DNA of 64,000 bases from an uncultured delta proteobacterium (lineage in GTDB: Bacteria > Myxococcota_A > Polyangia > Fen-1088). This document shows positions 2,010 through 57,601 of this stretch, one piece after another. The translations under genes and the position numbers were made by a program. The stretch is from NCBI GenBank assembly GCA_963737265.1, contig CAVTRY010000014.1, positions 64,001 to 128,000 of the forward strand, written 5' to 3'. Under the pieces are notes generated by a model that was not told the DNA's origin, did no database searches, and worked only from the letters and a program-made list of their open reading frames with translations. Each line of letters begins with the position of its first letter. Position 1 is the first letter of the stretch.

Positions 2010-2015
2010 GTTGAA

Positions 2016-6021: not shown

Positions 6022-6027
6022 TGCGCC

Positions 6028-10903: not shown

Positions 10904-11107
10904 GCGGCCGTTTTTACCATGCCGCCGGCCTGAAGACGTGTCCATCAATCGCTCCCGTCGCCAGCCCGGCTGCGCAGCGCGCCCGCTTCGTTTCTCCCCG
11001 CTTACATAGCCCGCGCTATGCGCGCTCGTCGCGCCTCGCGGGCGGGCTGCTCGCGCGGGCAGGCACGGTCCGCGATTGATGGACACGTATTGAGTGGCGT
11101 ATGACAG

Positions 11108-38733: not shown

Positions 38734-39402
38734 TCACTTGTGGCTGGCCATCCCCACATACACGACATGAACTCGTCCACCTTGGCCGCTCCGGTGGCGC
38801 TGGACGGAGAAGCCGGCGGCGGCGAGTCGGTCCTCGAAGGCGCGGTCGCGCTCTTCGGACCAGACGGCAAAGGCGCCGCCGGGCCGCAGCGCCGACGACG
38901 TGCGCGCGAGAGCGTCGGCGCCATACAGCGGATCGCGGGCGCTGTTGGTCGCGGCGTGCGGGCCCTCGTAGAGATCGAGGACGATGGCGTCGAAGTGGCC
39001 GGCGGGCGCGCGCGCGATCGCCTGCGCCACATCGGCCACGACGATCTTCACGCGCGGATCCTCGACCGCTTTCCGGGTCAGGAAGGCGAGCGGTCCGCGG
39101 TTCCACTCGACGAGCGGGCGGTTCAGATCCACCACTGTGAGCCGCGCGCCGGCCGGCAAACGGTCGAGGGCCGTGCGCAGGGTGAAGCCCATGCCGAGAC
39201 CGCCCAGTAGCACCTTCGGTCGCGGCTTGTCGGCCAGTGCGGCACAGGCGAGGCTGGCAAGCTCGTCTTCCGAGCGGTGCGCGGCGCTGGTCATGAGAAT
39301 CCGGCCGGCGATGGTGATGAGGAAATCTCGGTCGCCGCGACGGCGCAGTTCCATGATGCCTTCGCGGGTCTGCACGCTTTCGATGATTTGCCAGGGGAGC
39401 AC
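38734..39402 (-). CDS. Spermidine synthase-like SAM-dependent methyltransferase
   Basis: LMTS...SEDELA, VLLGGLGMGFTL, FDAIVLDLYEGP. Confidence 0.85.
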   Translation of the reverse strand: MLPWQIIESVQTREGIMELRRRGDRDFLITIAGRILMTSAAHRSEDELASLACAALADKPRPKVLLGGLGMGFTLRTALDRLPAGARLTVVDLNRPLVEWNRGPLAFLTRKAVEDPRVKIVVADVAQAIARAPAGHFDAIVLDLYEGPHAATNSARDPLYGADALARTSSALRPGGAFAVWSEERDRAFEDRLAAAGFSVQRHRSGQGGRVHVVYVGMASHK

Positions 39403-39502
39403 GGCCGTGACTCTACCTGACCGGCGAGCACCGAAGCACGGATCTCTCGCGGACGCACGCATGGGTTTGATCCGGAGCCGTTCCCTGGTAGCAGTAGGGG
39501 CG

Positions 39503-42368: not shown

Positions 42369-43508
42369 GTGATTTACGCCGACTACAACGCGACCACTCG
42401 CCTCGATCCCGAGGTGCGGGCGGCGATGGACGAGGCGTTGGACGCCGGGTTTGGCAATCCGTCGAGCATTCACGCCGCCGGGCAGGCGGCACGGCGGCTG
42501 GTAGATAGGGCGCGCGCGCAGGTCGCCCGGCTCGTGGGCGCGGCGCCCGAGGAAATTGTGTTCACTGGCGGCGGCACCGAAGCCGACAATCTGGCGGTGC
42601 TCGGCGTGGCCAGCGCGGCGCCGCGCGATCGCCCAGGCATCGTGACCAGCGCCGTCGAGCACCAAGCCGTTTTGGCCCCTTGTGCCTTCCTGCAAAAGCA
42701 GAGCCACGAGGTCACCTTTCTGCCGGTCGATGGCGCCGGCCGAATCGATCTCGCGGCGCTGGAGGCCGCCGCCAAACCCGACGTCGCGCTGGTGTCGGTG
42801 ATGTTCGCCAACAACGACACTGGGACCATCCAGCCGGTAGCCGAGGTAGTGAAGGTAGCGACGGCTTGCGGTACCGCGGTTCACACCGATGCGGTGCAGG
42901 CGGCCGGCAAGCTGCCCATCGACGTGAAGAAGTCGGGGGTGTCGCTGCTCTCGTTCTCGTCGCACAAGATCCACGGACCCAAGGGGGTGGGCGCTCTCTA
43001 CGTCCGGCGCGGGGTGGCTCTGGCACCGCTGGTACACGGCGGCCGGCAGGAGCGCACGCTGCGGCCTGGAACGGAAAACGTGCCCGGCATCGTCGGATTT
43101 GGCAGGGCGTGCGAGCTGGCGCAGGCACGCCTGGAAGCCGACAGCCGCCGCGTGGCCGAGTTACGCGCCCACTTCGAAACGCAGATTCTGGCGCGCGTTC
43201 GCGGCACTCGATTGAACGGCGGCGGCGATCGCTTGCCCAACACGTCTAATATCGCCTTCGCCGGCCTCGATGGCGAGGCCATCACCATCAACCTGGACCT
43301 GGCCGGCATGGCGGTATCCACCGGCGCGGCGTGCAGCTCGGCCGACAAGACGCCCTCGCACGTGCTGGTCGCCATGGGCCAGTCGGCGCTGGAAGCGCGC
43401 TCGTCGGTGCGTTTTTCCTTCGGCCGCGACAACACCGATGAAGAGATCGACCGAGCGGTAACCCTGGTCGTTCAAACCGTAAACATGCTGCGCGGGGCGC
43501 GACGATGA
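42369..43508 (+). CDS. iscS: Cysteine desulfurase (IscS/NifS family)
   Basis: DYNATT, GNPSSIH, GGTEADN, SHKIHGPKGVG, STGAACSS. Confidence 0.93.
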   Translation: MIYADYNATTRLDPEVRAAMDEALDAGFGNPSSIHAAGQAARRLVDRARAQVARLVGAAPEEIVFTGGGTEADNLAVLGVASAAPRDRPGIVTSAVEHQAVLAPCAFLQKQSHEVTFLPVDGAGRIDLAALEAAAKPDVALVSVMFANNDTGTIQPVAEVVKVATACGTAVHTDAVQAAGKLPIDVKKSGVSLLSFSSHKIHGPKGVGALYVRRGVALAPLVHGGRQERTLRPGTENVPGIVGFGRACELAQARLEADSRRVAELRAHFETQILARVRGTRLNGGGDRLPNTSNIAFAGLDGEAITINLDLAGMAVSTGAACSSADKTPSHVLVAMGQSALEARSSVRFSFGRDNTDEEIDRAVTLVVQTVNMLRGARR

Positions 43509-44585
43509 GTGAGCGCATCGTCGTGGCCATGAGCGGCGGCGTGGACAGCAGCGTGGCCGCAGCGCTGCTCCGGCAAGCAGGGCATTCCCTCGTCGGCGTC
43601 ACGCTGAAATTGCAGGAATGCCACGACGCCCACGGCAGCAAATCCTGTTGTGGCGTCGACGGAGTCACGCGCGCACGCGACGTGGCCGCCAGCCTCGGCA
43701 TCCCGCACTACGTGCTCGACTGTGTGAAGGATTTCGAACAGCTCGTGCTGCTGCCGGCGTGGCAAGAATACGCGGGAGGCCGAACGCCCAGCCCGTGCTT
43801 GCTGTGCAACGAACACGTGAAGTTCGGCTTGCTGCTCGACTGGGCCGAGCGCCTCGGCATTCCGCGCGTGGCCACCGGCCACTACGCGCGCCTGGAAAAG
43901 GACGAAGCCGGCCAGACGATGCTGCTGCGCGGCTGCGACACGGGCAAGGATCAATCGTATTTCCTCGCCGGTCTGTCGCTCAGCCAGCTCGGACGCGCGG
44001 CCTTTCCCGTGGGACATCTGCGTAAGCCCGAGGTACGCGCCTTGGCCAAGAGCCACGACCTCCCCACGGCAGAAACGCCCGAAAGCCAGGACGCATGCCT
44101 GGTTCGAGCCGGGCCAGTCGTTCTCCGAGATGTTGCGCAAGCGCTTCGCTGCCCCGGCGAAGACCGGCGAGATTGTCGACGAGGCCGGCCAGGTGGTCGG
44201 CCAGCACGCCGGCATTCACGTGTTCACCATCGGCCAGCGCAAGGGGCTGCCCGCGGGCGCGGCCTCGCGCCGCTGGGTCAAGTCCATCTCGCCCGAAACG
44301 GGCCAGGTCACCGTGACCGGCAACGCGGCCGAGCTCGTGGGCACCGAGTTCGTGGCCAAGAGGGTCAACTGGCTCGACGGCCCGCTGCCTGCTGCGGTCC
44401 TGCCGTGCTCGGTCCAAGTGCGCTATCGCCACGCCAGCGAACCCGCCACCGTCGAGGCCCTGGCCGACGGCAACCTGCGGGTCATCCTGGCCAAGCCCGT
44501 GAAGGCCATCACCCCGGGTCAAGCCGCGGTCTTCTACGACGGCGACCGCACCCTCGGTCGCGGCTGGATCGCTCCCCCTACGTGA
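43505..44585 (+). CDS. mnmA: tRNA 2-thiouridylase, frameshift near 44110
   Basis: AMSGGVDSS, PSPCLLCN, ATGHYAR, KDQSYFL, ESQDAC, then FTIGQRKGL and ITPGQAAVFY. Confidence 0.95.
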
Positions 44586-44835
44586 GATGCAGACGGGTGA
44601 ACCGGTGCCCGCGTGCAGCAACGCGAGCGACGGCGTGTTTGTTCCCGGCCACGGTGTCGTCATCTGGATCTTCCTCATCCGGAAGGATTTCTGGACGTCA
44701 TTCGGTCTGGACAAGGAGTATCTTCTTGTCTGTCACGCTGCTGGCCAGCGGCTTCGTCCAAAATACCATTTCAGACAGTCAGCTGAACGGACGCTTCCCC
44801 GCGCGAATCCCAAACCCAGACTTTGACGTGCATGC

Positions 44836-45834
44836 ATGAGCCTCGACGACGCCACCCCGCCTAATGTCCCAGTTGAGATTTCGCTGGTTGTACCTGTCTA
44901 CCAGGGTCAGCAGACGCTGGAGGCCCTGGCCGCGGAGATAGAGCCGCTTACCGTCACCCAGACCACCCGCGCGGGAGGGACGTTTCGCGTGGTGGAGTTA
45001 CTGCTCGTGCATGACGGCGCGGTCGACGACTCGGCCCGCATCATGAAGCTGCTCGCCGAACGTTACGCCTTCGTGCGACCGATTTGGCTGTCGCGCAATT
45101 TCGGCCAGCATCCGGCAACCTTTGCCGGACTCGCCAGCTCCGTTGGCGAATGGGTGGTCACCTTGGACGAGGACGGCCAGCAGGATCCTCGCTACATCGG
45201 CGACTTGCTCGATCAGGCGCTGAGCGCGCGCAGCCGGCTTGTTTACGCGAGTCCCACCAACGCGGCTCCTCACGGATTCGTGCGTAATGCATTTTCCACC
45301 TTGGCCAAGTGGCTATTCGTGAGCGTGCTCGGTGCCAACACGGGCCGGTTCAACAGTTTTCGCCTGATCGAAGGCGAAGTCGCGCGCGGTGTGGCGGCCT
45401 ACTGCGGACCCAATGTCTACCTCGACGTCGCCTTGTCCTGGGTCGTGGGTGCGGCCGAGCGCTGTCCAGTGAAACTTCGCGAAGAGCGCGGACGACGGTC
45501 AGGGTACACGCCTCGGCGTCTTTTGCGCCATTTCTGGCAGCTTGTGCTCTCTTCCGGAACGCTCCCGTTGCGCCTCATTGCCCTGGTCGGACTTGCCTCG
45601 GTTGTTTTCGCCGTGTTCTTCAGCCTCGTTCAGATCTGGAATCGACTTCACAACAAGATCCCCGTGCAAGGCTGGACCTCGACGATGATCGTCATGAGTC
45701 TGTTCGCCGGACTGACCTTGCTGTCTATCGGAATCGTCGCCGAGTATTTGGGCTTCAGCGTTTCCATGGCAATGGGCAAACCCGCCTACATGATTGTGTC
45801 TCGTCCACGCGAGGATCTCGCCAAGGAGCCATGA
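44836..45834 (+). CDS. GT2 polyprenol-phosphate glycosyltransferase (ArnC/GtrB-like)
   Basis: VVPVY, LSRNFGQH, LDEDGQQDP, two C-terminal TM helices, GIVAEY. Confidence 0.9.
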   Translation: MSLDDATPPNVPVEISLVVPVYQGQQTLEALAAEIEPLTVTQTTRAGGTFRVVELLLVHDGAVDDSARIMKLLAERYAFVRPIWLSRNFGQHPATFAGLASSVGEWVVTLDEDGQQDPRYIGDLLDQALSARSRLVYASPTNAAPHGFVRNAFSTLAKWLFVSVLGANTGRFNSFRLIEGEVARGVAAYCGPNVYLDVALSWVVGAAERCPVKLREERGRRSGYTPRRLLRHFWQLVLSSGTLPLRLIALVGLASVVFAVFFSLVQIWNRLHNKIPVQGWTSTMIVMSLFAGLTLLSIGIVAEYLGFSVSMAMGKPAYMIVSRPREDLAKEP

Positions 45835-46859
45835 GAGCGCCCATCGTTTGGGTGGTGGGCGCGACCGGCCTGCTGGGAGCGGCTGTCGTCCGCGGGCTGG
45901 GAGGGATGGTTTGGCGACCGGACAGGCCTTTTGCGTGGGGTGACGAAGCTCGGCTGGCAAGCGGCTTGCGCGATGCGGTCCACGCGTTTGCAACCCAAGT
46001 CGGGTCCGAGTCGGCTCGGCCTTGGGCGGTCTGCTGGTGCGCGGGTGCTGGTGTGGTGTCCACGTCGGCGTCGGCGCTCGCGGCGGAGACAAGGGCATTT
46101 CACCTGTTCCTGCAGCTGCTCGGCGCCGAGCAGCGTTTGCTGGCAGTCCCTGGACACGTGGCGCTGGCAAGCAGTGCCGGGGGCGTCTATGGAGGCAACA
46201 CGGAATGTCCCATCACCGAGGAGACCTTGCCCCAGCCCATTTCCGACTATGGTCGTGCCAAGCTGGAACAGGAACGGATGCTGCTTTCCTGGGCCGGCAG
46301 CCTGCCCACGCTGGTCAGCACCCTAGTGGCGCGTTTCTCCAATCTCTATGGCACTGGGCAACGTCTCGACAAACCGCAGGGACTCATTTCGCATCTGTCG
46401 CGCTGCTTGATTTTCAACACTCCTGTGCATGTCTACGTGTCGCTCAACACCATCCGCGACTATCTGTTCGCCGAAGATGCCGGTCGCCTATTTGTCGCGG
46501 GTCTTGGGAGGCTCGCGATCGAAGCGCGTGGAAACGGTCTGCACGTCACCAAGATCTACGCGTCCGAGCGCGAGATCTCCATCGCCTGTTTGCTGGGTAT
46601 CCTCCGCCGGATCTCGCGTCGCCGATTGCGGGTCATCTCCGGCTTGCACCCGGGAAGCTCACTCCAGCCGCGACGACTCCAATTCCGCTCGCGCGTGTGG
46701 CGCGCGCGGGATGATGGCGGGGGCAGACTGGTCGAGCTCGTGGCAGGGCTGAGTCAGGTCTATCGCGACCAGCTTGCGCTGTTCCGTCGCGGCCTCTTGC
46801 CGCCGCCGTCGCATACGAGTCCCATCACTTTGCGACCACCCAGCTTGGGAAGAGCGTAG
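45831..46859 (+). CDS. NAD-dependent epimerase/dehydratase
   Basis: GATGLLG, SSAGGVYG, YGRAK, RFSNLYG, RDYL. Confidence 0.88.
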   Translation: MRAPIVWVVGATGLLGAAVVRGLGGMVWRPDRPFAWGDEARLASGLRDAVHAFATQVGSESARPWAVCWCAGAGVVSTSASALAAETRAFHLFLQLLGAEQRLLAVPGHVALASSAGGVYGGNTECPITEETLPQPISDYGRAKLEQERMLLSWAGSLPTLVSTLVARFSNLYGTGQRLDKPQGLISHLSRCLIFNTPVHVYVSLNTIRDYLFAEDAGRLFVAGLGRLAIEARGNGLHVTKIYASEREISIACLLGILRRISRRRLRVISGLHPGSSLQPRRLQFRSRVWRARDDGGGRLVELVAGLSQVYRDQLALFRRGLLPPPSHTSPITLRPPSLGRA

Positions 46860-46874: not shown

Positions 46875-47114
46875 TCAGTGGCTGAGTTTCTTGTCGATGA
46901 GCACCAGCAGATCGCCCACGTTGTTCAACCCGACAACCTCTCCGGTGCCGAATCTGATCTTGAAGGCCTTCTCGATCTGAACGATCAGCCTGACGTTCTT
47001 CAAGGAGTCCCACCCTGGGACATCCTTTGCGGATGTGCTGTCCGCAAGCACGATGCTGTCGTCGTCAAACAAGTCGCGGAAAATCTCCTGCAGGCGATCT
47101 CGATGCACCGACAT
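46875..47114 (-). CDS. Acyl carrier protein (WDSL type)
   Basis: DVPGWDSL phosphopantetheine site, IEKAFKIRF; 79 aa. Confidence 0.93.
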   Translation of the reverse strand: MSVHRDRLQEIFRDLFDDDSIVLADSTSAKDVPGWDSLKNVRLIVQIEKAFKIRFGTGEVVGLNNVGDLLVLIDKKLSH

Positions 47115-47137
47115 CGCTCCTCCCTCGTCAGTCAATT

Positions 47138-49012
47138 TCATTCAATCACTATACAGTGGCCCCGTAGCATACGCTGTTCGCTCAGATCGAATTGCCAGGT
47201 GGTTCCGTCGGCGTCACCTGGGATCTCCTTGAAACCGAGGTCGGCGTAGTGTCCGCTGACAAGCTTGTTCTTGGCGGTGGGTAAGTAGCGACCCACGATC
47301 ACGCGAAGGCCTCGACCTCGACAAAACTCCACCAGGCGCTCCATCTCAAGGACCTCGACGCCGCGCTTGAGAACTCGGCAGCTCATCACCCAGTTGTCGA
47401 TTACGAGAGAGCTCTCCTTGACACGCCCGATGACGACGCTGATGAGCCCATTGGCGCCGAACCGGTCGTCGAGCCGGATCGTCGACGTGTAAGCCTGGTC
47501 GTTGCCGACCAGCGCCTGCACCTCCGCCTCGGTCATGCGGCGGGTGGTCAGGTTGAACTGGTTGGTCTTGTTGATGAGCTGGGTCGCGCGCGCCAGGTTC
47601 CTCTCGGTGACTGGCTCGATCCCAGCGCGCATCTCGAGCCGTTGAAGGAAGTCGTCGTAGCCCCTGGCCCCGGCCTCCAGCTTTTCGCGAGCCTGGTTTT
47701 GCTGGAAGAACTCTCCCCGGATCTGATCTTCTTGCGTCACTGACAGCGTGTCGAAGAGATTTGCGCCGTCCAGCTTCTGCACGAACAGCGAGGGATCCTC
47801 GGGTACGTCAATCACCGTCACGTCCGGCAGACTGGTGCGAACCAGGTGACGCTCTGCGGGGTTGTCGTCGAAGAAGACCATCGCGTCGAGCTCGATATTG
47901 AGTCGCTCGGCAATCGACAGGAGGCTCCGGTCCTTGGGCTCCCAACCCGCCACAAAGCAGGATATGTCGCTCTCTTTCAAGATCATGTCCCGGTGCTCGC
48001 GGAACGGCGCGAGCGCGTTTTCCGGTTCGTTCTTACTGGCCACCGCCAGCAACACGCCGCGCTCCTTGAGCGCCCGCACGTAGGCCTGGAACTGCTGAAA
48101 AGCCTCGCCTTCCGGCTGCCCCACTCCCAGTCGAATGCCGCGCAGGCCATCGTCCCCGATTACGCCGCCCCACAGCGTGTTGTCTAGATCGAGCACCAGG
48201 CACTTCTTGGATTTTCCAAATAGCGCGCCCAGCATCGCGGCCAAACGATCAGCATAGTGCGGCTGGCATTCGAAGCTGACGGCGGTCTTGGTTTCGTTCC
48301 ACAGACGCGCGTCGAACCAGCGACCCTTGCCCCAGATTGCCGAAAGTTGCTCGATGTCGTTAACGTAGACCCGTGGCGGCAGCGCTTGCGCCAGCGCCTC
48401 GTTCAAAGCCCTGATCATGCCGTTGCGGCTACCGGCGGCGACCACGTCTAGCGTGCCATAGGGTCGCTCGACACCGGTCTCGAAGTTGTTCACCACCAGC
48501 GGACAACCGAAACGAACAACGGCGGCCCGAAAGAGGTCGAGCAGGCGCTCGGCCTGGTCGCGCACGAGTCGGGGGGGATCCTCCGCGAACAGCGGAAACG
48601 TCAGGTTGCGGCTCGAGACGTGGAGATGAATCACGTCGGGCGCGAACGCGCACAGCGCAGGAGATTCGGACCAGATCTCCTGTTCATAGAGCCCGAAGTC
48701 GCTTTCGTAGGTTGTGAGCGCCAGCCCGCGCCGGCAGGCAAAGAGCCGAACAAGCGGCGTTAGAAAATGGGTGGTCGCTCCGCCAAGAATCGCCAGACGT
48801 TTTTGGGTCGGGATGCGCGCCGACACGATTTCGGCCGGAATCTTGCCGAGCTGATCGGCGGCATACTCCACCACTTCCAGGGCGTCGCCCGGCTGGACGC
48901 GCAGCATGAGATCGAGTGCCTCCCGGTACCGGTGGGCCTTCATCTGCTGCTTGATTTCTGCCTTCATTTTGCTTGCGCGCCCCGTTCGCGCGGTGGCGGC
49001 AAGTGTAGACAA
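47138..49012 (-). CDS. FkbH-like HAD-IIIC phosphatase / glyceryl transferase
   Basis: VLDLDNTLWGG, ASKN, FFDDNPAE, KTNQFNLTT, DRFG, MSCRVL. Confidence 0.93.
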   Translation of the reverse strand: MSTLAATARTGRASKMKAEIKQQMKAHRYREALDLMLRVQPGDALEVVEYAADQLGKIPAEIVSARIPTQKRLAILGGATTHFLTPLVRLFACRRGLALTTYESDFGLYEQEIWSESPALCAFAPDVIHLHVSSRNLTFPLFAEDPPRLVRDQAERLLDLFRAAVVRFGCPLVVNNFETGVERPYGTLDVVAAGSRNGMIRALNEALAQALPPRVYVNDIEQLSAIWGKGRWFDARLWNETKTAVSFECQPHYADRLAAMLGALFGKSKKCLVLDLDNTLWGGVIGDDGLRGIRLGVGQPEGEAFQQFQAYVRALKERGVLLAVASKNEPENALAPFREHRDMILKESDISCFVAGWEPKDRSLLSIAERLNIELDAMVFFDDNPAERHLVRTSLPDVTVIDVPEDPSLFVQKLDGANLFDTLSVTQEDQIRGEFFQQNQAREKLEAGARGYDDFLQRLEMRAGIEPVTERNLARATQLINKTNQFNLTTRRMTEAEVQALVGNDQAYTSTIRLDDRFGANGLISVVIGRVKESSLVIDNWVMSCRVLKRGVEVLEMERLVEFCRGRGLRVIVGRYLPTAKNKLVSGHYADLGFKEIPGDADGTTWQFDLSEQRMLRGHCIVIE

Positions 49013-49162
49013 CGCCGCTTCGTTTTGTCTATATTCTCAATCATTGTCCTAAAGAAGTCCCTGACGTTGGCGCATTTGTCGTTCAAGAATCAGCGCGAAT
49101 CGAATCGGCCCTGCTAAGGGGTAGCCGATCCATCGGGGACGCGGTAGCAGAGATCGCCATCC

Positions 49163-50587
49163 ATGCTGTTCAATAGCTTCGAGTTCCTGATCTTTCTGAC
49201 CGTCGTCTACGGCCTCTATCTGGCGCTGCCGCACCGGCTTCAGAACTGGATGCTGCTCGCCGCCAGCTACGTGTTCTACGGTTGGTGGGACTGGCGCTTC
49301 CTCAGCATCATCCTTTTTACGACGGTGCTCAACTACCTGGTCAGTCTCAAGGTGTCGCGCAGCACGAGCGACCGATCTAGAAAGCTGTTTCTCAGCATCT
49401 CCGTTATCTGCAACCTCGGGTTGCTGGCCGTCTTCAAGTACTTCAACTTCTTCGTCGGGTCGTTCATCGATCTCGCGCTCAGGCTCGGGTTTCATCTCCG
49501 GTGGGAGCCGCTGCACATCATCCTGCCAGTCGGGATTTCCTTCTTCACCTTTCAATCGATCGGCTATTCTATTGACGTCTACCGGGGTCAGATCAGTCCG
49601 CCCCGCCGCTTCCTCGATTTTGCGCTGTTCGTGGCGTTCTTCCCGCAACTGGTCGCAGGACCGATCCAGCGCGCGACCAATCTGCTGCCCCAGGTAATCG
49701 CGCCTCGTCGGATCGTTCTCGATCAGGTCACCCGCGGCGCGTTCCTGATCCTTTACGGCTTGTTCAAGAAGACGGTCATCGCCGACGGCCTAGCAGGCAG
49801 CGTCAATGACGTCTATAGCTCGGTGGGTGGGAGCTCTGGACTGGATGTCCTGCTGGCCACCTATCTATTTGTGCTCCAGATCTACTGCGATTTTTCCGGC
49901 TACACAGACATCGCGCGCGGTGTCGCCAAGCTGATGGGGTTCAACCTTTCGAAAAACTTCATGACGCCGTTTTACGCCGCCTCACCCTCGGAGTACTGGA
50001 CCCGATGGCACATCAGTCTGTCGAGCTGGGTGAAAGACTACGTTTACCTGCCGCTGGCGCTCCGCTACCTGCGGCGCAGTGACAGCAAGGTCAACGAATA
50101 CAAGCCACATCTGTACGCGATGGTGCTGATGGGTCTGTGGCATGGCGCTGCCTGGACCTATATTCTGTGGGGCGTCTATCACGGATTCATGCTGGTGGCG
50201 TGGGACGCCATCAAGTGGCCCAGGGCAGGGAAAAAGCGGCGGCCATCGATCCCGAAGCCGATCCGGATCGCGTTCTACTTCCAGGTGACCGCGCTCAGCC
50301 TGCTGATTTTCCGGGCGAACTCGGTCCGCCAAATCGGCGAGCTCTTGTGGTCGCTGACGGGCGGGTTGTCGACCAAGCGGCTCAGCATTCCCTTGCCTCC
50401 GACGGCAACCTTGCTGGGTATCCCACTGTTTCTCGTGCTCGATTTTCTGGCCTTCCATCACTCGAGCGATCTCTACTATCGCAAGTGGCCAGATGCGATG
50501 CGCGGCGCCCTGGTGGCCACGCTCTTCATTCTGGTATTAATGGGTTGGTCCAATGCCCCGGCAGAGTTCATCTACTTCCAGTTCTAA
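49163..50587 (+). CDS. MBOAT family O-acyltransferase (AlgI/DltB/PatA-like)
   Basis: MLFNSFEF, LPVGISFFTFQ, FFPQLVAGPI, DFSGYTDIA, WHISLS, GLWHGA, C-terminal FIYFQF. Confidence 0.95.
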   Translation: MLFNSFEFLIFLTVVYGLYLALPHRLQNWMLLAASYVFYGWWDWRFLSIILFTTVLNYLVSLKVSRSTSDRSRKLFLSISVICNLGLLAVFKYFNFFVGSFIDLALRLGFHLRWEPLHIILPVGISFFTFQSIGYSIDVYRGQISPPRRFLDFALFVAFFPQLVAGPIQRATNLLPQVIAPRRIVLDQVTRGAFLILYGLFKKTVIADGLAGSVNDVYSSVGGSSGLDVLLATYLFVLQIYCDFSGYTDIARGVAKLMGFNLSKNFMTPFYAASPSEYWTRWHISLSSWVKDYVYLPLALRYLRRSDSKVNEYKPHLYAMVLMGLWHGAAWTYILWGVYHGFMLVAWDAIKWPRAGKKRRPSIPKPIRIAFYFQVTALSLLIFRANSVRQIGELLWSLTGGLSTKRLSIPLPPTATLLGIPLFLVLDFLAFHHSSDLYYRKWPDAMRGALVATLFILVLMGWSNAPAEFIYFQF

Positions 50588-51704
50588 TCCGACGGCACTC
50601 GCGCCGCCGCAGTCCTTCTCGCTTAGGAAGCTGGGGCGTACCGCGTTCTTCTTCTTGCTCTTCCTGTTGCTGTTCGAGCTCGGGACCTGGGCGGTGTTCA
50701 CCAAGACCCGCCTGGCAGGCGGGTCGCTGCACAGGTTTCTTTGGTACGGAACCTCCTACGAGACGAAGCTGCGCGATTTCGTCAACACACCTAACCAGCC
50801 CGCGAACTCGCTGCTCTATGCGGGTTGGCTGGGCGACGGAAAGCTGCGGTCGCTGCCTGCGGACATCGACGTGACCGTCTACGGGATGTCCTTTTCGGCA
50901 AACCTGAGCGAAGCCATGCGCGAGCTGCGGCCGGAGATAAGGCAACGGGTGGTAGCCGGCCCAGGGGCACCCCTCAACCACACGTACGCCATGTACCAGG
51001 TCGACAAGAAACTGCGCAAGACACGCTTCGCGGTCATCGGCGCCACCTCGGGCGCGGTGCAAGAGATCCTGCTCATGAACCGGGGCAGCTTGTTTTTGGA
51101 TTCAGCGTTCCCGTACTTCTTTCCGCGTTACAAGGTTGATCATGGGAACGTGGTGCTTGCGGCCGATTCCCTCGTCAACTCGGCGGACGAGCTGCGCACG
51201 GCACTCAACAACCCCGAAATCTGGCGGCGCCAGTTGGCGGTGCTTGCGGAGAATGACGATGGCTACCGTCGCTTCTTCTTTGCCGGCGATCCGCTGGATG
51301 CGAGCGTGCTGGGTCGTCTCGTGCGCCGAGGGCTCTCGAAACACCACCTTCAGGACTACTCCAGCAAGGTCCTAGGACCGTCCGGCTTTCGGCGCGACCA
51401 CGAAGCGCCACAGCTTTTTCGGGCCTTGTTGCGGCAAATGGTACGCGAGCTGCGCGCCGAGAACGTGCAGCCCATCGTGGCGCTCTTCTCGCTGCAGGGC
51501 CACGGAAACCACCTCTATTCGCTGGTGGAGGACATCTTGCGCGACGAGGCAGTCCCTTATGTAAATTCCTACGACTTCTGCCATTCGGATGACCGCAGCA
51601 AGTACCAGCCCAATCTCCACTTTGTCCACGAGTGCGACCTCTTGTTCGCGCGGCGCACACTTGAAATCATGGACGCCATCGATAAAGCCAGGTCACCCAT
51701 GTGA
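50553..51704 (+). CDS. Membrane-anchored periplasmic protein, putative SGNH-like (AlgJ/DltD-analogous) acyl acceptor
   Basis: One N-terminal TM helix, VYGMSF candidate Ser block, late NLHF His; directly follows the MBOAT gene. Confidence 0.6.
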   Translation: MPRQSSSTSSSNPTALAPPQSFSLRKLGRTAFFFLLFLLLFELGTWAVFTKTRLAGGSLHRFLWYGTSYETKLRDFVNTPNQPANSLLYAGWLGDGKLRSLPADIDVTVYGMSFSANLSEAMRELRPEIRQRVVAGPGAPLNHTYAMYQVDKKLRKTRFAVIGATSGAVQEILLMNRGSLFLDSAFPYFFPRYKVDHGNVVLAADSLVNSADELRTALNNPEIWRRQLAVLAENDDGYRRFFFAGDPLDASVLGRLVRRGLSKHHLQDYSSKVLGPSGFRRDHEAPQLFRALLRQMVRELRAENVQPIVALFSLQGHGNHLYSLVEDILRDEAVPYVNSYDFCHSDDRSKYQPNLHFVHECDLLFARRTLEIMDAIDKARSPM

Positions 51705-52042: not shown

Positions 52043-53721
52043 ATGAATACCATCGAGAGCGCGACCGCCCGGCTGCCCAGACGCCACGTGGAACGGGTTA
52101 TTCTTCCGGCTGTGATCGCGCTGCTGGCGATCCTCGCGTGGCACGCCCGTTGGGATCAGGACGACGCATTCATCTCGTATCGCTACGCCCGGAACTGGAT
52201 CGACGGCTTCGGCGTCGTTTGGAACCCGGGTGAGCCCGTCGAGGGCTACAGCAACTTCCTTTGGGTGGTCGTGCTCGCGACCCTAGGTGCTCTTGGCATC
52301 CCGCTGACGACGGCCAGTTATTTGGCGTCCATCGGGTGCTTCGTCGGCAGCCTGGCGGCGACCTACGCGCTCGCACAAACGGTTCTGAAGAACCACGTAC
52401 TCGCCCTGCTGGTGTGCCTCTTGGTGGGACGAACTACAGCTTTTTCTCGTACGCGACCGGAGGCCTCGAGACCCAGCTCGAGGCCGTTCTCAGCCTCATC
52501 CTGCTCAACGTCGGGGCCCGCGTCACGATTCATCGCAAAGCCTCGATCGGCGTGCTCATGGCGACCAGCGCGGTTTGCGCCTGCGCAGTGATGACGAGGC
52601 CGGACGGCGTCCTGCCCGCAGGCATCCTCGCCGGATGGATCACGCTGGTCCTGTTCGACGCCAAGACGTCGTGGCGCACCTGGTTGCTGCAAATTTTGGC
52701 GCTCGCGGCGCCCGGGGTCGCTATTCTCGCGCGATGGGTGGCCTGGAAGATCCACTTTTACGGCAACTGGCTGCCGAACACATACTACGTGAAGCTTGGA
52801 ACCATCCACCCGCAGACCCTCGAGCGCGGCGCCATCTATGTCGGACTGTTTCTCGCATCCTATTGGCTCTTGCCGGTCCTCCTGGTGCTGGCATTCCAGG
52901 CTTTCAAGAAACTCAAGAAGGGTGCCTTGCCCAGCGTGAGGCTCTCGCCCGCTCTCATGATGGCTCTCCTGGTGTGCGTGACGTTCGCCTATATCGTCGT
53001 GGCCGGTGGGGACATTATGGAGTTTCGCTTCATCGTATCCCTCGTCCCCCCCATCTTCGTACTCGTCGTGAAGTGGCTGTCGGAGCTACTTCCGCGATCC
53101 GTGTTTTTTGTCAGCGGAATTCTCGCCCTTGGAAGCATCTCGCACGGGTTGTTCTTCCCGCGTTACGTGACACCGCCAGGAATCGGGTTCATTCGGGGGT
53201 TGGAATATAACGTCACGCGCGCAACGACGACGAGCTGGTCAGCTATTGGAATAGCCATCGGACGCGGGTTGCCTGTCGATAGCACGGTGAAGATCGCAAT
53301 GACACCGGCTGGCGCGATCCCGTATTACAGCCGACTGCGTTCCGTGGATATGCTTGGGCTGAACGACAAGTGGGTCGCGCGATACGGACGCCCCCGGCAG
53401 CTTTGCGTTGTGTGCACGGGGCACCAGCGACTGGCGGACGTTCACTACCTGCGGTCCGTGGGTACGACGTTGATCGTCGGTCATCCACAAGTCGGAACGC
53501 AAGCGGAGTTCCGGGACGCGGACTTCACACGCATCCTGTCGGCGATGTTTTACGACGAGAAAATGGATTTTCAGGAGATTCCGAGTGGCGCTCGGATGCT
53601 GATGATCCCGCTCGATGCCACGCACGGCGTGTTCGTCGTGTACCTGACGCCGCACCCCGACGTCGAACGAGCTCTCATGGAAGGCCGCTGGTTGGCGCGG
53701 CCGCTTCTTCCGTCCTCGTGA
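52043..53721 (+). CDS. Multi-TM GT-C-like glycosyltransferase, frameshift near 52428
   Basis: DDAFISYRYARN, VEGYSNFLW, GLET, TRPDG, PNTYYVK, DMLGLND. Confidence 0.8.
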
Positions 53722-53741: not shown

Positions 53742-55013
53742 TCAGGACGATGCGGGGACGTCAAATAGCTCCCGTGTCCAACGGGCGCGCCGATCCAGCC
53801 ATGCCTCTTGCGTGTTCGCCTTTGCAAATTCGACAGCTTTGCGAAATGAGCCATCGAGTCTTTCTCGGTTTTGGCTGATATCGGCAATGGCTCGGCCCAT
53901 TGCATCAATATCTAGCCAGGGAAGGAGAGCCACGGCCGCTCCAGCCGCAGCTAGCTCGCGATAGTAATAGGTATCGTACGCAAGGATGGCTTGACCGGCG
54001 GCCATAGCGTCCATCGCGCTCCTAGGTGTGTCTTGACTGAGCGGTGCAGCTAGGAGCACGTGGCACTGGTAGAGCAGCTCAAAAACCGAGTTGAACGGGA
54101 CGGGACCGTGAAAATGTACCAGTTCGCCAAGTTTCAACGCTTTGGTCAGGGCGGTCAGCCCGGCCAACTCAGGCCCGCCGCCGATGATTTGGAAACGGAT
54201 ATTCTTGGCCCCAAGGCCGATTGCACGATGAAAAGCCCGCAGCATGTGGTCGACGCCCTTGTAGGCGACCAAGCGGCCAAAGTAGGTGAATACAACGGGC
54301 GTTGCGGGATCCAAAGCCGCACAGACCTTCGCAGCGAGCTTAGCAGGTGTGATGACTTGACTCTCCCCAAAAGCCGCATCCAGAAAATTCTTTACGTTCG
54401 AGCGGCCCTTTCCGTAGTCGCTGGCCAGTTCTTCACCTTTGAGAAGTATCAACGAGAAGAGACGAACGCCAATGGACTGTTGGACATGAGCGAAGGAATT
54501 GTGAAGTACTCGCGTGACGAGGTAGTCCTTGCGCGACCATCGACCTGTCTTGAGATTCATTCTCGCGGTGGTGCGATTGTCGATATCCGTGACACTGATC
54601 GTCTTTCTCCCAATTGCCCGAGCCATCAGGAGCGCAGGAAATTCGAATGGACGATAGAGGGACGAATTGCCGGCGTGCACGAGAGACGACTTTCTGACTT
54701 CGGTCCATAGCACCCGTAGTACGTTGGGCAGCTCAAGTAGGTAAGACAGTCGACCTATCTCGGCGGAAAATGCAGTCTGAAATCGGATGTTTTCACGGGC
54801 CTCGTCCACGACCGATAGGTGAGACTTCTGAGTCTCGTACTGCGCAGGGGACATATTGGGTGCCACCAGCACCATATCCTCTGCCAGGGGGCCGAGCTTC
54901 TCTTTCAACTGGCGCAAATGCAACACAAAGGCGCTCTCCATCGCAAACCTACCTTGCAAGGTGCGATAGCCAGGAACCGAGATGACGATGAGATAGGTTC
55001 GATTAGCCGCCAT
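53742..55013 (-). CDS. GT4 family glycosyltransferase
   Basis: YFGRLVAYKGVD, IIGGGPE, DTPRSAMDAMAAG. Confidence 0.85.
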   Translation of the reverse strand: MAANRTYLIVISVPGYRTLQGRFAMESAFVLHLRQLKEKLGPLAEDMVLVAPNMSPAQYETQKSHLSVVDEARENIRFQTAFSAEIGRLSYLLELPNVLRVLWTEVRKSSLVHAGNSSLYRPFEFPALLMARAIGRKTISVTDIDNRTTARMNLKTGRWSRKDYLVTRVLHNSFAHVQQSIGVRLFSLILLKGEELASDYGKGRSNVKNFLDAAFGESQVITPAKLAAKVCAALDPATPVVFTYFGRLVAYKGVDHMLRAFHRAIGLGAKNIRFQIIGGGPELAGLTALTKALKLGELVHFHGPVPFNSVFELLYQCHVLLAAPLSQDTPRSAMDAMAAGQAILAYDTYYYRELAAAGAAVALLPWLDIDAMGRAIADISQNRERLDGSFRKAVEFAKANTQEAWLDRRARWTRELFDVPASS

Positions 55014-55143: not shown

Positions 55144-56160
55144 ATGTCGTGCGGTTCACACAGCCGATCGGGATCGCAGACGGTTCGCTTCGTCCACCGT
55201 GACGCACGGCTGGTTGAACGCATTCTCAGCCTGCCGAGCAACGCTTTGCCTCTGGAGATGTCGCCCCCCCTCGACATCAGCGAAGGCGCCAACGCCTGGA
55301 TCGCCCAAAGCTTCATGCACCTTCGCCGTCACGGTCTTCCGGTCCAACTGGCGTCGACCCTTTCGCCTAGCCATGTGAACGTGCTTCACTACGATCATGT
55401 TCCTGGCTGGAAGAGGTTCCCGTTTTGGGCGTTCTTTGCCGTGGTTCAGGCAGACCGGCCAAGGCCCATGATTGCCGATGTCCGCATGGTTCAGAACAAA
55501 CTCTGTATTCAGGATGTGGATCGGGACCGATTCGTCCCCCTTTGGTCTCAACCATGCCTACGCCCGCGCGATCCTGCTCGCGGCGACCGATTGAGCACGA
55601 TTGCCTACATGGGACTCGAGTGCTACTTGGCTCTACCGTTTCGGGAAGCCAAATTCAAGGAACGGCTCGCGGCTGCTGGAGTCTCCTTCGAGCCGCACTT
55701 TCGACCCGAGGAGTGGAGCGACTACAGCGCCGTCGACGCCATCTTGGCTGTGCGAAACGTCACGCCCTACGATCTGTCCATCAAGCCCGCGACAAAGCTC
55801 ATCAATGCGTGGAAAGCTGGCGTTCTTCCCCTGCTTGGGCGGGAGCCCGCCTATACGCAAGTGGGGCGCCCTGGTGTCAACTATTGCGAGGTTTCAAGTG
55901 CTGAAGATGTCATCCGCGCCGTTCATTGGGCGCAGGATAATCCAGCTGATGCAGCTCGGGTGCGGCAGTCAGGCGCATGCGCCTTTCAGATGTACAATGA
56001 TGAGCAGACAATTCAGCGTTGGGTCGAGATCCTTGCCGGGACACTTCTTCCGGCATTCGAGCAGTGGCGCCGCGAAGGGGCGCTGAGTCATCTCCTGAAG
56101 CTCCCGGGTCGGCTAGCGAAGCATCGACGCGAAGCAGCCTTCTTCCGTGCCAACATCTGA
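55144..56160 (+). CDS. GT-B-like glycosyltransferase
   Basis: DYSAVDAILAVR, KPATKLINAWKAGV; polysaccharide-locus context. Confidence 0.65.
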   Translation: MSCGSHSRSGSQTVRFVHRDARLVERILSLPSNALPLEMSPPLDISEGANAWIAQSFMHLRRHGLPVQLASTLSPSHVNVLHYDHVPGWKRFPFWAFFAVVQADRPRPMIADVRMVQNKLCIQDVDRDRFVPLWSQPCLRPRDPARGDRLSTIAYMGLECYLALPFREAKFKERLAAAGVSFEPHFRPEEWSDYSAVDAILAVRNVTPYDLSIKPATKLINAWKAGVLPLLGREPAYTQVGRPGVNYCEVSSAEDVIRAVHWAQDNPADAARVRQSGACAFQMYNDEQTIQRWVEILAGTLLPAFEQWRREGALSHLLKLPGRLAKHRREAAFFRANI

Positions 56161-56290: not shown

Positions 56291-57601
56291 CTAATCTGGG
56301 AAGGGCATGCCGAAGTCGGGCCTAGCGGCGCGCCGCAGAACCCAGTCGTAGACAGCCGCGATCTGGTCAGCCTTGCGATCCCAGGTAAACCATCGTTCCA
56401 CGCGCGAACGACCAAGGGCAGCCTTGGCGACCACCTCGCCCGGCCGATCAACAAGCACCTCCATCTGGCTGCGCAGCTTTGCAATGATGGTTTGGCGTGG
56501 GCCGAGCGGCACTAGGTACCCGGTCGCAGGGGTAACCAATTCGGCGGGTCCCGCGTAGTCGACCACGACGGGAACCACGCCCGACGCCATGGCTTCTAGC
56601 ACCACGCCACCTCCAAATTCTCGAATGCTGGGAAAACCCAGGACATGCGATTGACGCAGCCGTGCCGCAACACCGGTGCGATCCAGCCACCCACTGAAGG
56701 TCACCCCTCGACTCAGGTGGTGCTCACCGACCAGGTGTTCCAGAGCTACTCTTTGCGGACCATCGCCAATAATCTCTAGGAGTACTTTCCCCTTCTGGAT
56801 CAATCCGGCACAAGCCTCGATCAACATGTCCGCGCCCTTGTAGGGCACGAGTCTGCCTACGAAGACCACTCGAAGCGGAGCACGAACGGATGGCCGGTTG
56901 TCACTTTCCGCAAAAGTCTCGGGCGAAATGGCATTCTCAGGAACATAAACGGCTTTGGAGCACCAAGGCGCTCCCAATTGCTTCCAAGTCGACCGCGAGC
57001 CGACGAGGATAGCGGCGGCGCTTTCCCGCATGCTCCGGTAGCCTGGCAAGAGGCGATAGGCATCTCGCACATAGGAAAGCCATTCGCGTTCTTGCCGCCG
57101 AGCTTGGGAAAACTCGCGCGGCCAGGGTACGCCGCCGTTGAGTGGGCCCACCACGAACGGGACCCCAAGTGCCTGGAGTCGATGGGCGATGCGGCTGGGC
57201 GTGGTCGGGCTGAGTGGTGTCACCCGATGGACGATGTCCCATTTGCCAGCACGAAACTCCGGTTCAAAACGTTTCCACAGTAGACGCTCAAACCAGTAAT
57301 AGGAAGGAACGGACATTGCGGTCATCAGTGTCCATGCTACCCCTGGGGAGCCGCGCAGCCGGTCTGCAAGCCTCGACATCGGCGCGGCCACCGCCTCGCT
57401 GTCGAGGGCGGTGAAGTCGCTCTCGGGCGACCAGCCGGCCCGCGCGATGGCGGCGGCGTTGCGTTTCTGAGTCACCAGATGAACGTCGGCCACTTGCCGC
57501 AGGGCCGCCGCGATCGACCACCCAACGAGCGGAACGCTGACCCATTCGGGATTAGCCGCCTCCGCAATGACCATGACCCGGGTTTTCTTGTCAGTTTTCA
57601 T
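56291..57601 (-). CDS. GT4 family glycosyltransferase
   Basis: AEAANPEWVSVPLVGW, FVGRLVPYKG, REFGGGVVLEAMASG. Confidence 0.9.
   Translation of the reverse strand: MKTDKKTRVMVIAEAANPEWVSVPLVGWSIAAALRQVADVHLVTQKRNAAAIARAGWSPESDFTALDSEAVAAPMSRLADRLRGSPGVAWTLMTAMSVPSYYWFERLLWKRFEPEFRAGKWDIVHRVTPLSPTTPSRIAHRLQALGVPFVVGPLNGGVPWPREFSQARRQEREWLSYVRDAYRLLPGYRSMRESAAAILVGSRSTWKQLGAPWCSKAVYVPENAISPETFAESDNRPSVRAPLRVVFVGRLVPYKGADMLIEACAGLIQKGKVLLEIIGDGPQRVALEHLVGEHHLSRGVTFSGWLDRTGVAARLRQSHVLGFPSIREFGGGVVLEAMASGVVPVVVDYAGPAELVTPATGYLVPLGPRQTIIAKLRSQMEVLVDRPGEVVAKAALGRSRVERWFTWDRKADQIAAVYDWVLRRAARPDFGMPFPD

Follow-up and report, generated by a model that had tools for sequence, protein, structure and literature searches.

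The Dlt pathway is described in a recent paper on the MBOAT-SGNH mechanism (PMC12148441, 2025) as the sole pathway of its kind that is fed by a carrier protein, with all other MBOAT-SGNH pathways using acyl-CoA, and the same paper describes the FXYXXF acyl-shuttle motif and its role. The characterized FkbH enzymes that we found in the literature all act in polyketide pathways, and the literature searched, mostly outside the subscription journals, held no description of a system combining FkbH, an acyl carrier protein (ACP), an MBOAT, and an SGNH protein. Here, a window of 64,000 nucleotides (the whole stretch of DNA analyzed) contains neighboring genes for all four (Table 1). A sequence-only reading of the window had proposed that they form a Dlt-like relay from FkbH and ACP to MBOAT and its partner, and this is supported by the SGNH fold of the partner and by recurrent neighborhoods of the same kind. 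The proposal needs refinement on three points: the MBOAT belongs to the PatA/AlgI type and has a fused shuttle, the carrier link is confined to a subclade among the close MBOAT-partner relatives, and a second FkbH-ACP-thioesterase gene is present in the cluster.

ORF, Pfam, and NCBIfam scans found all four genes intact and at the positions claimed, with the fkbH-acp pair divergent from the MBOAT gene and 150 bp between the FkbH and MBOAT starts. The start of the ACP gene overlaps the stop of FkbH by 4 nt, and the operon consists of these two genes only; the ORF and Pfam scan detected no further acyltransferase in it. The unit indeed lies inside a glycosyltransferase cluster (about 44836 to 64240), in which the scans turned up no gene for an exporter or a polymerase. 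The earlier statement that the window contains no PKS or NRPS was borne out to the extent that KS, AT, condensation, and adenylation domains, as well as FabH-like, acyl-CoA dehydrogenase, and O-methyltransferase domains, were absent from the 55 window ORFs scanned, but it needs correction for the fused FkbH-carrier-thioesterase gene near the end of the cluster. This second FkbH gene has frame breaks near 60984-60991 and 61420-61460, and intact relatives of the fusion are present at two other loci, G000:C11 (L050:8671-12003, 1110 aa) and L055. Because of this gene, glycerate chemistry in the cluster need not go via the MBOAT.

Table 1. Features of the four-gene unit and the surrounding glycan cluster (window coordinates)
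Feature	Position	Strand	Remarks
ArnC/PgfS-like GT2	44836-45834	+	Cluster context
NAD-dependent epimerase/dehydratase	about 45831-46859	+	Convergent with ACP
Discrete acyl carrier protein (ACP)	46875-47141	-	88 aa; PF00550
FkbH-family loader	47138-49012	-	624 aa; FkbH_N + HAD-IIIC + C-terminal acyl-transfer domain; TIGR01686
Divergent intergenic region	49013-49162		Promoter-like sites on both strands and TAGACAA...TTGTCTA palindrome; consensus matches only
MBOAT	49163-50587	+	474 aa; PF03062; DltB-like core
FXYXXF hexapeptide F-I-Y-F-Q-F, MBOAT C terminus	50567-50584	+	Read directly from sequence
Membrane-anchored SGNH-fold partner	50553-51704	+	383 aa; AF2 model and structural matches
GT-C-like membrane glycosyltransferase	52043-53721	+	Split over two frames
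GT4	53742-55013	-	Cluster context
GT-like protein	55144-56160	+	338 aa; cluster context
GT4	56291-57601	-	Cluster context
Beta-helix/PKD protein	57672-59792	-	Cluster context
Second FkbH domain, carrier domain, and thioesterase, fused	60218-63216	+	Split over three frames
GT2 closing the cluster	63213-64000, on past window end	+	Two-component system next

The ACP matched PF00550 at 22.4 bits (cut-off, 20.8) and has the WDSL-type motif G-W-D-S-L, in which W44, D45, and S46 are invariant in an alignment of 20 FkbH-linked ACPs; Ser46 is the predicted phosphopantetheine serine. The loader scored 307.2 bits against TIGR01686 (curated cut-off, 146.65) and 66 bits against the HAD-IIIC model TIGR01681 (cut-off, 35.75), Pfam identified FkbH_N plus HAD, and residues 71 to 427 matched the N-terminal part of BF1531 (PDB 3slr) with an E value of 9.5e-60. 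Its start codon is TTG, and an alternative ATG 15 codons in is possible. All residues of the HAD motif (DxDxT, S/T, K, DD), namely, D275, D277, T279, S326, K327, K360, D382, and D383, are invariant in six of six sequences, and an intact HAD phosphatase would fit a phosphorylated acyl-phosphate substrate. In the C-terminal domain, S544-C545-R546 is likewise invariant in six of six FkbH sequences. In work on OzmB, a cysteine in this domain of the FkbH family is said to carry the acyl-enzyme intermediate, and C545 in the S-C-R motif is a candidate for this cysteine. No characterized member of the three-domain, FkbH_N-bearing subfamily was found, 3slr being an uncharacterized structural-genomics protein.

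The MBOAT (PF03062, 63.6 bits) matched the solved DltB chains 8jem and 6bug with an E value of 1.5e-32 and scored 171.4 bits over residues 31 to 384 against TIGR04091, the DltB equivalog model with a cut-off of 375; judged by these matches, it is homologous to DltB but is no DltB equivalog. W282-H283 and also H327 are invariant in the 20 sequences aligned. The protein extends about 90 residues beyond the DltB-like core and ends with FIYFQF directly before the stop codon, and in the same alignment, F469, Y471, and F474 each reach a conservation of at least 90%, making Tyr471 the candidate acyl-tyrosine. A fused FXYXXF motif is of the PatA/AlgI type, and the MBOAT is therefore no copy of the DltB/DltX arrangement; with the motif fused, the route would run from the ACP via the MBOAT tyrosine and the SGNH serine to the polymer without DltX. 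Prediction of an MBOAT-ACP complex gave a score of 0.47 (0.51, 0.47, and 0.47 in three runs; best of three controls, 0.01), which lies in the range up to 0.60 where the mark was reached by only 7 of 80 solved complexes plus both of the mismatched pairs that passed. Overall, the mark was reached by 58 of these 80 and by 2 of 110 mismatched pairs. The partner pLDDT was at least 77, and at least 82% of the contacts agreed between runs. The prediction weakly suggests docking of the ACP to the MBOAT, and the pass may stem from likeness because the DltB-DltC complex has already been solved.

The partner matched no Pfam or NCBIfam family, that of DltD in Pfam included, and the search of its sequence against solved structures yielded nothing useful (best E value, 0.11). 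Its AF2 model (pLDDT 92.3) has a single N-terminal helix (residues 24 to 51) and an SGNH/GDSL domain, as the sequence-only reading had anticipated. VIA comparisons gave Z scores of 16 to 17 with GDSL proteins, 16.2 with PatB, and 15.1 with OatA, and the Foldseek list includes the DltD structures 6o93, 6pfx, and 3bma at an E value of about 2e-3, with no sequence-family match to DltD. In the family alignment, S113 (Y-G-M-S-F-S) and H356 do not vary, and D354, which forms a D-G-H motif with H356 in the family, is conserved in at least 90% of the sequences. The model places Ser113 at a strand-to-helix turn (strand 107 to 111, helix 113 to 125) and His356 just ahead of the last helix, with Ser113 as the candidate nucleophile and Asp354 and His356 as candidate triad partners. 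The start of the partner gene overlaps the end of the MBOAT gene by 35 nt, and the overlap is real, since no other start codon precedes the membrane helix. A conserved N-terminal S-S-S-T-S-S-S stretch in the partner family was considered as an acceptor peptide and rejected, being the +1-frame reading of the likewise conserved MBOAT end E-F-I-Y-F-Q-F within this overlap.

On balance, we lean toward the reading that the four genes constitute a carrier-protein-fed MBOAT-SGNH O-acylation relay, leading from 1,3-bisphosphoglycerate to a glycan ester. By analogy with its family, FkbH would take 1,3-bisphosphoglycerate, its HAD domain would strip the 3-phosphate, and the glycerate would be loaded as a thioester on the ACP. 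The glyceryl-ACP would then dock at the cytoplasmic face of the MBOAT, where His283 would shift the acyl group to Tyr471 of the FIYFQF shuttle at the outer face, as in PatA and DltB/DltX, and the SGNH partner would accept it on Ser113 and esterify a hydroxyl of the glycan made by the surrounding glycosyltransferases. It is the membership of the loader in the FkbH family that points to glycerate as the acyl group, and a surface polysaccharide is the presumed acceptor polymer. The residues that the relay singles out as predicted key positions are Ser46 of the ACP, Cys545 of FkbH, His283 and Tyr471 of the MBOAT, and Ser113 of the partner.

The neighborhood of FkbH, WDSL-type ACP, and MBOAT recurs widely in other loci. 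A scan centered on FkbH covered 80 metagenome loci, 33 of them with at least 4 kb on both sides, and found an ACP in 63 and an MBOAT in 35 of the 80; among the well-flanked loci, the ACP lay no more than 500 bp away in 25 and an MBOAT no more than 4 kb away in 18. In 14 of the 35 loci, MBOAT and either FkbH or ACP were direct same-strand neighbors less than 100 nt apart (gaps of -11 to 97 nt). No more than 2 MBOAT genes occur in the 6.55 Mb of the genome that the window comes from, yet the adjacency recurs in unrelated contigs, and the linkage therefore exceeds chance. All four genes were found together in five genomes (two Methylibium MAGs, a record titled Cyanobium, a gammaproteobacterial MAG, and Terracidiphilus), three of them with the order MBOAT-partner-FkbH-ACP on one strand, so that the four-gene sets span several phyla and two gene orders. 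Metagenome contigs with the cassette came from the gut as well as from soil, peat, and freshwater. As to the source of the window, the one pointer to a myxobacterium is that the nearest named homologue is from a Myxococcales MAG.

When the scan was centered on the partner, the MBOAT gene was directly upstream in 40 of 44 loci, any carrier domain was present in only 10, and 26 of the 44 were from genomes without an FkbH over the cut-off, many of these genomes being incomplete MAGs. In the clade nearest this MBOAT, 33 of 38 rows had no FkbH in the flank retrieved. Most close MBOAT-partner relatives are without FkbH and ACP nearby, so that the carrier link characterizes this MBOAT subclade; it is also seen with MBOATs that are more distantly related. 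Conversely, 13 of the 33 well-flanked FkbH loci had no MBOAT within 8 kb, and FkbH-ACP therefore serves other acceptors too. The MBOAT-adjacent ORFs in the FkbH loci were often of SGNH type, the 30 scanned including three ALGX/DHHW proteins, one SASA protein, and two sub-threshold GDSL matches. Against Pfam-less MBOAT-adjacent ORFs, the partner-family profile matched two clusters, weakly though collinearly (P 7.8e-4 over 262 columns and P 0.0086 over 250 columns), and gave no match to four other clusters of such ORFs. For one of these Pfam-less families (five sequences), the best VIA matches of a poor AF2 model (pLDDT 60.7) were SGNH/GDSL proteins and PatB at a Z score of about 10, with unrelated folds at 8 to 9, a hint of an SGNH-like fold. 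G-x-S and D-x-x-H motifs were read by eye in the Pfam-less ORFs.

The same evidence bears on whether the four genes work together at all. They could be two independent modules in one glycan cluster, with the MBOAT-SGNH pair O-acetylating a polymer from acetyl-CoA in the manner of PatA/PatB or AlgI/AlgJ and FkbH-ACP feeding a cytoplasmic transferase that could, for example, acylate a nucleotide sugar or a lipid-linked intermediate. A fused shuttle motif is typical of acyl-CoA users, FkbH is missing near most of the closest MBOATs, 13 of the 33 well-flanked FkbH-ACP pairs have no MBOAT within 8 kb, and the thioesterase fusion in the same cluster would be an MBOAT-free use of glyceryl-ACP. We nevertheless consider this arrangement unlikely in view of the direct, same-strand abutment of FkbH or ACP with MBOAT, the co-travel of all four genes across distant taxa in two gene orders, the frequency of an MBOAT within 4 kb in relation to the scarcity of MBOAT genes in the genome, and the fact that the FkbH-ACP operon of the window offers no other acyltransferase. 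That the FkbH-ACP pair serves polyketide-type biosynthesis (of methoxymalonyl-ACP or a tetronate) and is only incidentally linked to the MBOAT is highly improbable; it would agree with the characterized members of the FkbH family, but the window ORFs scanned are free of the KS, AT, FabH-like, acyl-CoA dehydrogenase, and O-methyltransferase domains of such pathways and the neighboring genes are glycosyltransferases.

Another alternative keeps the relay and changes its cargo: this FkbH subfamily may make some other product, or glycerate may be altered further while on the carrier (to a lactyl, hydroxymalonyl, or methylated form). That no characterized member of the subfamily was found leaves room for this, as do the tailoring genes that stand between FkbH and MBOAT at other loci, a MaoC-dehydratase/SDR fusion (L073) and an aldo-keto reductase (L052). 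Furthermore, Campylobacter jejuni makes a di-O-methylglyceric acid sugar derivative, and its flagellin glycosylation locus contains cj1302, a gene with an FkbH domain (PMC7099621, PMC3958885). We regard a modified cargo as quite doubtful here, however, because the operon has only two genes, the cluster ORFs scanned include no methyltransferase, acyl-CoA dehydrogenase, or dehydratase, and the HAD and S-C-R residues of FkbH are all conserved.

If the relay is true, it would be a second carrier-fed route besides the D-alanine pathway of Gram-positive bacteria, and a recurrent FkbH-ACP-MBOAT-SGNH cassette would break the division between a carrier-fed Dlt pathway and acyl-CoA-fed systems. [quoted passage not shown] More tentatively, and with rather more doubt than confidence, we suggest that such cassettes represent a widespread second class of carrier-dependent envelope acylation, in which an activated three-carbon hydroxy-acid of glycolysis would be passed, without ATP-dependent adenylation, through a fused acyl-tyrosine shuttle to form extracytoplasmic glycan esters. 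On this view, the sister clade of the MBOAT, which looks acyl-CoA dependent, may descend from carrier-fed forms that lost the loader. The relay would also account for how glycerate esters get onto extracytoplasmic polymers. Gellan-type exopolysaccharides are secreted polysaccharides that carry a glycerate ester; the ester in gellan is L-glycerate, while D-glycerate is the form expected of FkbH chemistry, and no FkbH-MBOAT route for these exopolysaccharides was found described.

In comparison with the FkbH, OzmB, Tmn16, and Mad7 loaders, the loader described here shares an FkbH domain over the curated cut-off, the HAD-IIIC motifs, and a dedicated standalone ACP adjoining it, but it bears an additional FkbH_N domain, which BF1531 also has, and it lies in a glycan cluster, with neither oxidizing nor methylating enzymes downstream and with no PKS or FabH-like enzyme. 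The C. jejuni locus resembles it in that an FkbH-domain gene lies among genes for glycan modification, in an organism with a glyceric-acid derivative on its glycan; in the accessible parts of the two papers, however, no MBOAT-SGNH link is reported and cj1302 is not functionally tied to that derivative (PMC7099621, PMC3958885).

With the Dlt system of teichoic acid D-alanylation (DltA, DltC, DltB, DltX, and DltD), the unit shares a small carrier protein that would be loaded in the cytoplasm, a DltB-homologous MBOAT for outward passage of the acyl group, an SGNH-fold protein with a membrane anchor for delivery to the polymer, and a similar gene linkage. It differs in having FkbH, a HAD phosphatase with acyl transfer, in place of the adenylating DltA-type enzyme (the unit and the cluster ORFs scanned yielded no AMP-binding domain), in the proposed use of a hydroxy-acid from glycolysis instead of an amino acid, and in carrying FXYXXF on the C-terminal extension of the MBOAT instead of on a separate DltX microprotein; moreover, the MBOAT falls below the DltB equivalog cut-off and the partner lies outside the DltD Pfam family. 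The fused C-terminal hexapeptide with its invariant tyrosine and the separate, membrane-anchored extracytoplasmic SGNH partner are shared with PatA/PatB and AlgI/AlgJ(X), and PatB is among the best structural matches of the partner. Those systems use acetyl-CoA and no carrier (PMC12148441), whereas in this unit the MBOAT gene is linked to those of an ACP and its loader. This gene linkage argues for a carrier-bound rather than an acyl-CoA donor for the MBOAT.

Our results support, as far as computation goes and with some refinements, an earlier interpretation of the four-gene unit at 46875..51704 in which glyceryl-ACP feeds an MBOAT and an SGNH-like partner that would place a glycerate ester on an exopolysaccharide (EPS). 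All four open reading frames claimed in that sequence-only reading are present and intact, and the MBOAT gene does start 150 bp from the FkbH gene on the opposite strand. The FkbH gene shares 4 nt with the start of the ACP gene. Its product reaches 307.2 bits with TIGR01686, a curated model of the FkbH domain whose cut-off is 146.65, and 66 bits with the HAD-IIIC model, and its residues 71-427 match the structure solved for the N-terminal portion of Bacteroides fragilis BF1531 (3slr; E, 9.5e-60). The MBOAT matches the DltB structures 8jem and 6bug (E, 1.5e-32) and reaches 171 bits with the equivalog model for DltB, far below the cut-off of 375, while the partner has no match to solved structures by sequence (best E, 0.11). 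The 150-bp intergenic region contains promoter-like sites on both strands, as consensus matches only, around a TAGACAA...TTGTCTA palindrome that overlaps the sites of both divergent operons and may be an operator.

Positions of the genes and sites discussed, within the window
Feature	Position	Strand	Description
Alginate-lyase-family protein	22163-23434	plus	Upstream of the glycan cluster
Reverse transcriptase/maturase ORF	29644-31017	plus	Group II intron; RVT_1 + GIIM
Sulfatase	38984-42292	plus	1102 aa; MopE-type metal-binding motif; upstream of the glycan cluster
mnmA	43505-44839		Housekeeping tRNA thiolase; frame-split, middle and C-terminal domains in other frame (44130-44585)
Glycan genes	about 44836 to just beyond window end		From an ArnC/PgfS-like GT2
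ACP	46875-47141	minus	88 aa; PF00550 at 22.4 bits (cut-off, 20.8); motif G-W-D-S-L
FkbH	47138-49012	minus	624 aa; FkbH_N and HAD domains (Pfam)
Palindrome	49002-49035		TAGACAA(N12)TTGTCTA; candidate operator
MBOAT	49163-50587	plus	474 aa; PF03062 at 63.6 bits
Partner	50553-51704	plus	383 aa; no Pfam or NCBIfam family
GT-C-like gene	52043-52591 and 52261-53721		Frame-split
Second FkbH	60218-63216	plus	FkbH domain, carrier domain and thioesterase; over three frames, breaks near 60984-60991 and 61420-61460

The co-occurrence check favored the unit, as FkbH, ACP and MBOAT neighborhoods recur in other genomes. Among 44 partner-centered loci, from one genome per species, an MBOAT gene lies immediately upstream of the partner in 40; in three of the other four the contig has no upstream DNA, and L020 has 6.3 kb upstream with no MBOAT gene. 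All four genes occur together in five of the 44: two Methylibium MAGs (L001 and L003), a record titled Cyanobium (L002), a gammaproteobacterial MAG (L004) and a Terracidiphilus MAG (L025), the last of which has three MBOAT genes (4028-5464, 5497-7011 and 10128-11681) in one locus with FkbH and ACP. Locus L044 carries an FkbH domain with a carrier domain and a thioesterase after it. The gene order in L001-L003 is MBOAT-partner-FkbH-ACP on a single strand with touching coordinates, whereas in the window and L004 the pairs point away from each other, and the four genes have therefore been kept together through rearrangement. In the best 80 of 575 confirmed FkbH relatives on metagenome contigs, many of them short, an ACP was present in 63 loci, an MBOAT in 35 and the partner family in 2, L051 and L055, which are the closest relatives of all. 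Where at least 4 kb was available on each side (n = 33), an ACP lay within 500 bp in 25 loci and an MBOAT within 4 kb in 18 and within 8 kb in 20; for scale, the window's 6.55-Mb genome has two MBOAT genes. Of the 35 loci with an MBOAT, 14 have it directly next to ACP or FkbH and on the same strand, at gaps of -11 to 97 nt.

The guess that the partner is SGNH-like was borne out by structure prediction. One search returned 79 homologues, all of which lack Pfam domains. When a profile of the partner was run against 1.84 billion cluster representatives, there were 901 matches at E ≤ 1e-3, of which 493 had E ≤ 1e-10 and 270 had E ≤ 1e-30. The AlphaFold2 model (pLDDT, 92.3; pTM, 0.87), built on a 32-sequence family alignment, combines a single N-terminal helix, at residues 24-51, with an alpha/beta domain. 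VIA-align of this model against 48,161 chains ranked GDSL/SGNH proteins at the top (4rsh, with Z 16.9 and an rmsd of 2.5 across 158 residues), with PatB at Z 16.2 and the OatA C-terminal domain at Z 15.1, and Foldseek returned GDSL lipases and TesA first and then DltD of three species, with E values of about 2-3e-3. Ser113 (Y-G-M-S-F-S) is invariant and lies at the turn from strand 107-111 to helix 113-125, while His356 (invariant) and Asp354 (≥90% conserved) both precede the last helix. In the predicted structure, the candidate catalytic Ser113 and Asp354/His356 are thus at the usual spots of SGNH blocks I and V.

The DltB-like match in the window MBOAT stops at residue 384, and the roughly 90 residues beyond it end in E-F-I-Y-F-Q-F directly before the stop codon. 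An alignment of 20 FkbH-linked MBOATs shows no variation at W282-H283 or H327 and at least 90% conservation of F469, Y471 and F474. Anderson and colleagues (2025, PMC12148441) describe how DltB hands D-Ala from the carrier DltC to the FXYXXF tyrosine of the microprotein DltX and how, in PatA, the same motif is auto-acetylated and fused to the protein's own C-terminus via two extra helices. According to the same paper, the donor in MBOAT-SGNH pathways outside Dlt is acyl-CoA. The window MBOAT, with its FIYFQF-ended extension, therefore has the PatA/AlgI architecture, yet it adjoins a carrier protein and its loader. The partner's ATG falls within the MBOAT gene, giving an overlap of 35 nt (50553-50587), and there is no alternative start codon ahead of the membrane helix. 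An N-terminal S-S-S-T-S-S-S in the partner family was rejected as a true motif, being the +1-frame reading of the conserved MBOAT codons for E-F-I-Y-F-Q-F. This common other-frame reading shows that the predicted MBOAT and partner genes overlap alike across the family, which would fit coupled translation.

The HAD residues D275, D277, T279, S326, K327, K360, D382 and D383 and the S544-C545-R546 motif are invariant in the window FkbH and five relatives. Judged from sequence, an intact phosphatase and adjoining acyl-transfer domain would fit a donor that is an acyl phosphate and a phosphate ester at once. The cysteine would be the residue that reportedly bears the acyl-enzyme intermediate in OzmB. 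Since the FkbH-ACP operon holds no tailoring gene and the 55 window ORFs scanned include no methyltransferase, methoxymalonate-route dehydrogenase, FabH-like enzyme or KS, AT, condensation or adenylation domain, plain glycerate is the simplest reading of the acyl group. Campylobacter jejuni cj1302, which encodes an FkbH domain within the flagellin glycosylation locus (PMC7099621), is a precedent for FkbH in glycan work; in the flagellin of C. jejuni 11168, pseudaminic acid occurs as a di-O-methylglyceric acid derivative (PMC3958885), and neither passage draws a connection between gene and derivative. A complex prediction for ACP and MBOAT scored 0.47 versus 0.01 for the best of three controls, weak support that we discounted as evidence; the pass may be mere likeness since the DltB-DltC complex has already been solved.

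In other FkbH loci, Pfam assigned 3 of 30 MBOAT-adjacent ORFs to ALGX/DHHW (AlgX-type SGNH), 1 to SASA, 2 to GDSL below the cut-off and 10 to unrelated families, leaving 14 with no match. Most of the unmatched ORFs have an N-terminal hydrophobic stretch, then G-x-S, and a D-x-x-H-like motif near the end. It is likely that the FkbH cassette usually includes an SGNH-type partner, which is only partly shown because these motifs were read by eye, profile matches to the window's partner family are weak and the AlphaFold2 model of one unmatched family is poor (pLDDT, 60.7; SGNH proteins top at only Z about 10). A MaoC-dehydratase/short-chain-reductase fusion adjoins the MBOAT in one FkbH-ACP-MBOAT locus (L073:9689-11149) and an aldo-keto reductase does so in another (L052:12130-13188), which hints that carrier-bound glycerate is changed, e.g., to lactate, before transfer in such variants.

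The window MBOAT is 40-49% identical to MBOATs of pairs lacking FkbH versus 24-34% to other FkbH-linked MBOATs, and by this measure the window pair is closer to the former. In a quick IQ-TREE of 73 MBOATs without outgroup, from which ORFs of <380 aa (including those of L002 and L004) were dropped, the 33 rows whose fetched flank lacks FkbH fall together on one side of a branch (SH-aLRT, 90), their sister is a group of the window, L051, L055, L001 and L003 (support, 100), and the remaining FkbH-linked rows all fall outside. A single change of the FkbH label suffices on this tree, with labels drawn from two sampling schemes and the fusion-type L044 labeled as lacking FkbH. Two home-made HMMs of limited reach found any carrier domain within about 7 kb in only 10 of 44 partner loci (five FkbH-type ACPs and five others), and a Pfam scan covering L001-L015 (124 ORFs) showed those of L005, L006 and L014 to be parts of PKS-like or A-T-TE proteins. 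FkbH exceeded the cut-off anywhere in 18 of the 44 partner genomes and in none of the other 26, many being incomplete MAGs. The carrier link is therefore a trait of the window's subclade and of more distant MBOATs, not of the whole partner family. Some FkbH-less MBOAT-partner pairs have other carrier genes nearby (L005:10880-15097; L006:10838-13567 and 1409-3004; L014:1-2322; L020:1032-3767), namely KR-DH-ACP-TE accompanied by an AMP-ligase and a phosphopantetheinyl transferase, an A-T-TE protein, and a carrier-domain protein of 912 aa, which suggests other carrier-fed acyl groups within the family.

In the surrounding glycan cluster, the first GT2 is followed by an epimerase, the four-gene unit, the GT-C-like gene, two GT4 genes, a GT-like protein of 338 aa, a beta-helix/PKD protein, the second FkbH fusion and, last, a GT2, and a two-component system comes after the cluster. 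No flippase, polymerase or exporter was found in the cluster, and EPS as the acceptor polymer is a guess. Judging by the polyprenyl-phosphate GT2 and the GT-C-like gene, further decorations are probably attached outside the cytoplasm as well. Within 20 kb, three genes (mnmA, the GT-C-like gene and the second FkbH fusion) are frame-split, and because a housekeeping gene is split too, we suspect assembly indels and not gene decay. An intact 1110-aa counterpart of the fusion, 67% identical in DNA to the window copy, adjoins a priming sugar transferase on another contig of the same genome (L050:8671-12003), and an intact 1031-aa counterpart in the close metagenome relative L055 (807-3902) lies beside an AT3 acyltransferase and the MBOAT-partner pair.

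In the literature searched, the scope of which left out most subscription journals, we found no description of an FkbH-ACP-MBOAT-SGNH system. The full mechanism, glycerate included, is one that we lean towards, if only slightly. The proposed likeness to Dlt holds for the design, since the window system would also work as a carrier-fed MBOAT-SGNH relay, but not for membership, because it has no adenylating enzyme and no DltX and its MBOAT falls under the DltB cut-off. Structurally, the window pair is of the same kind as those of PatA and AlgI, and the difference is that it has acquired, or kept, a carrier-protein donor.
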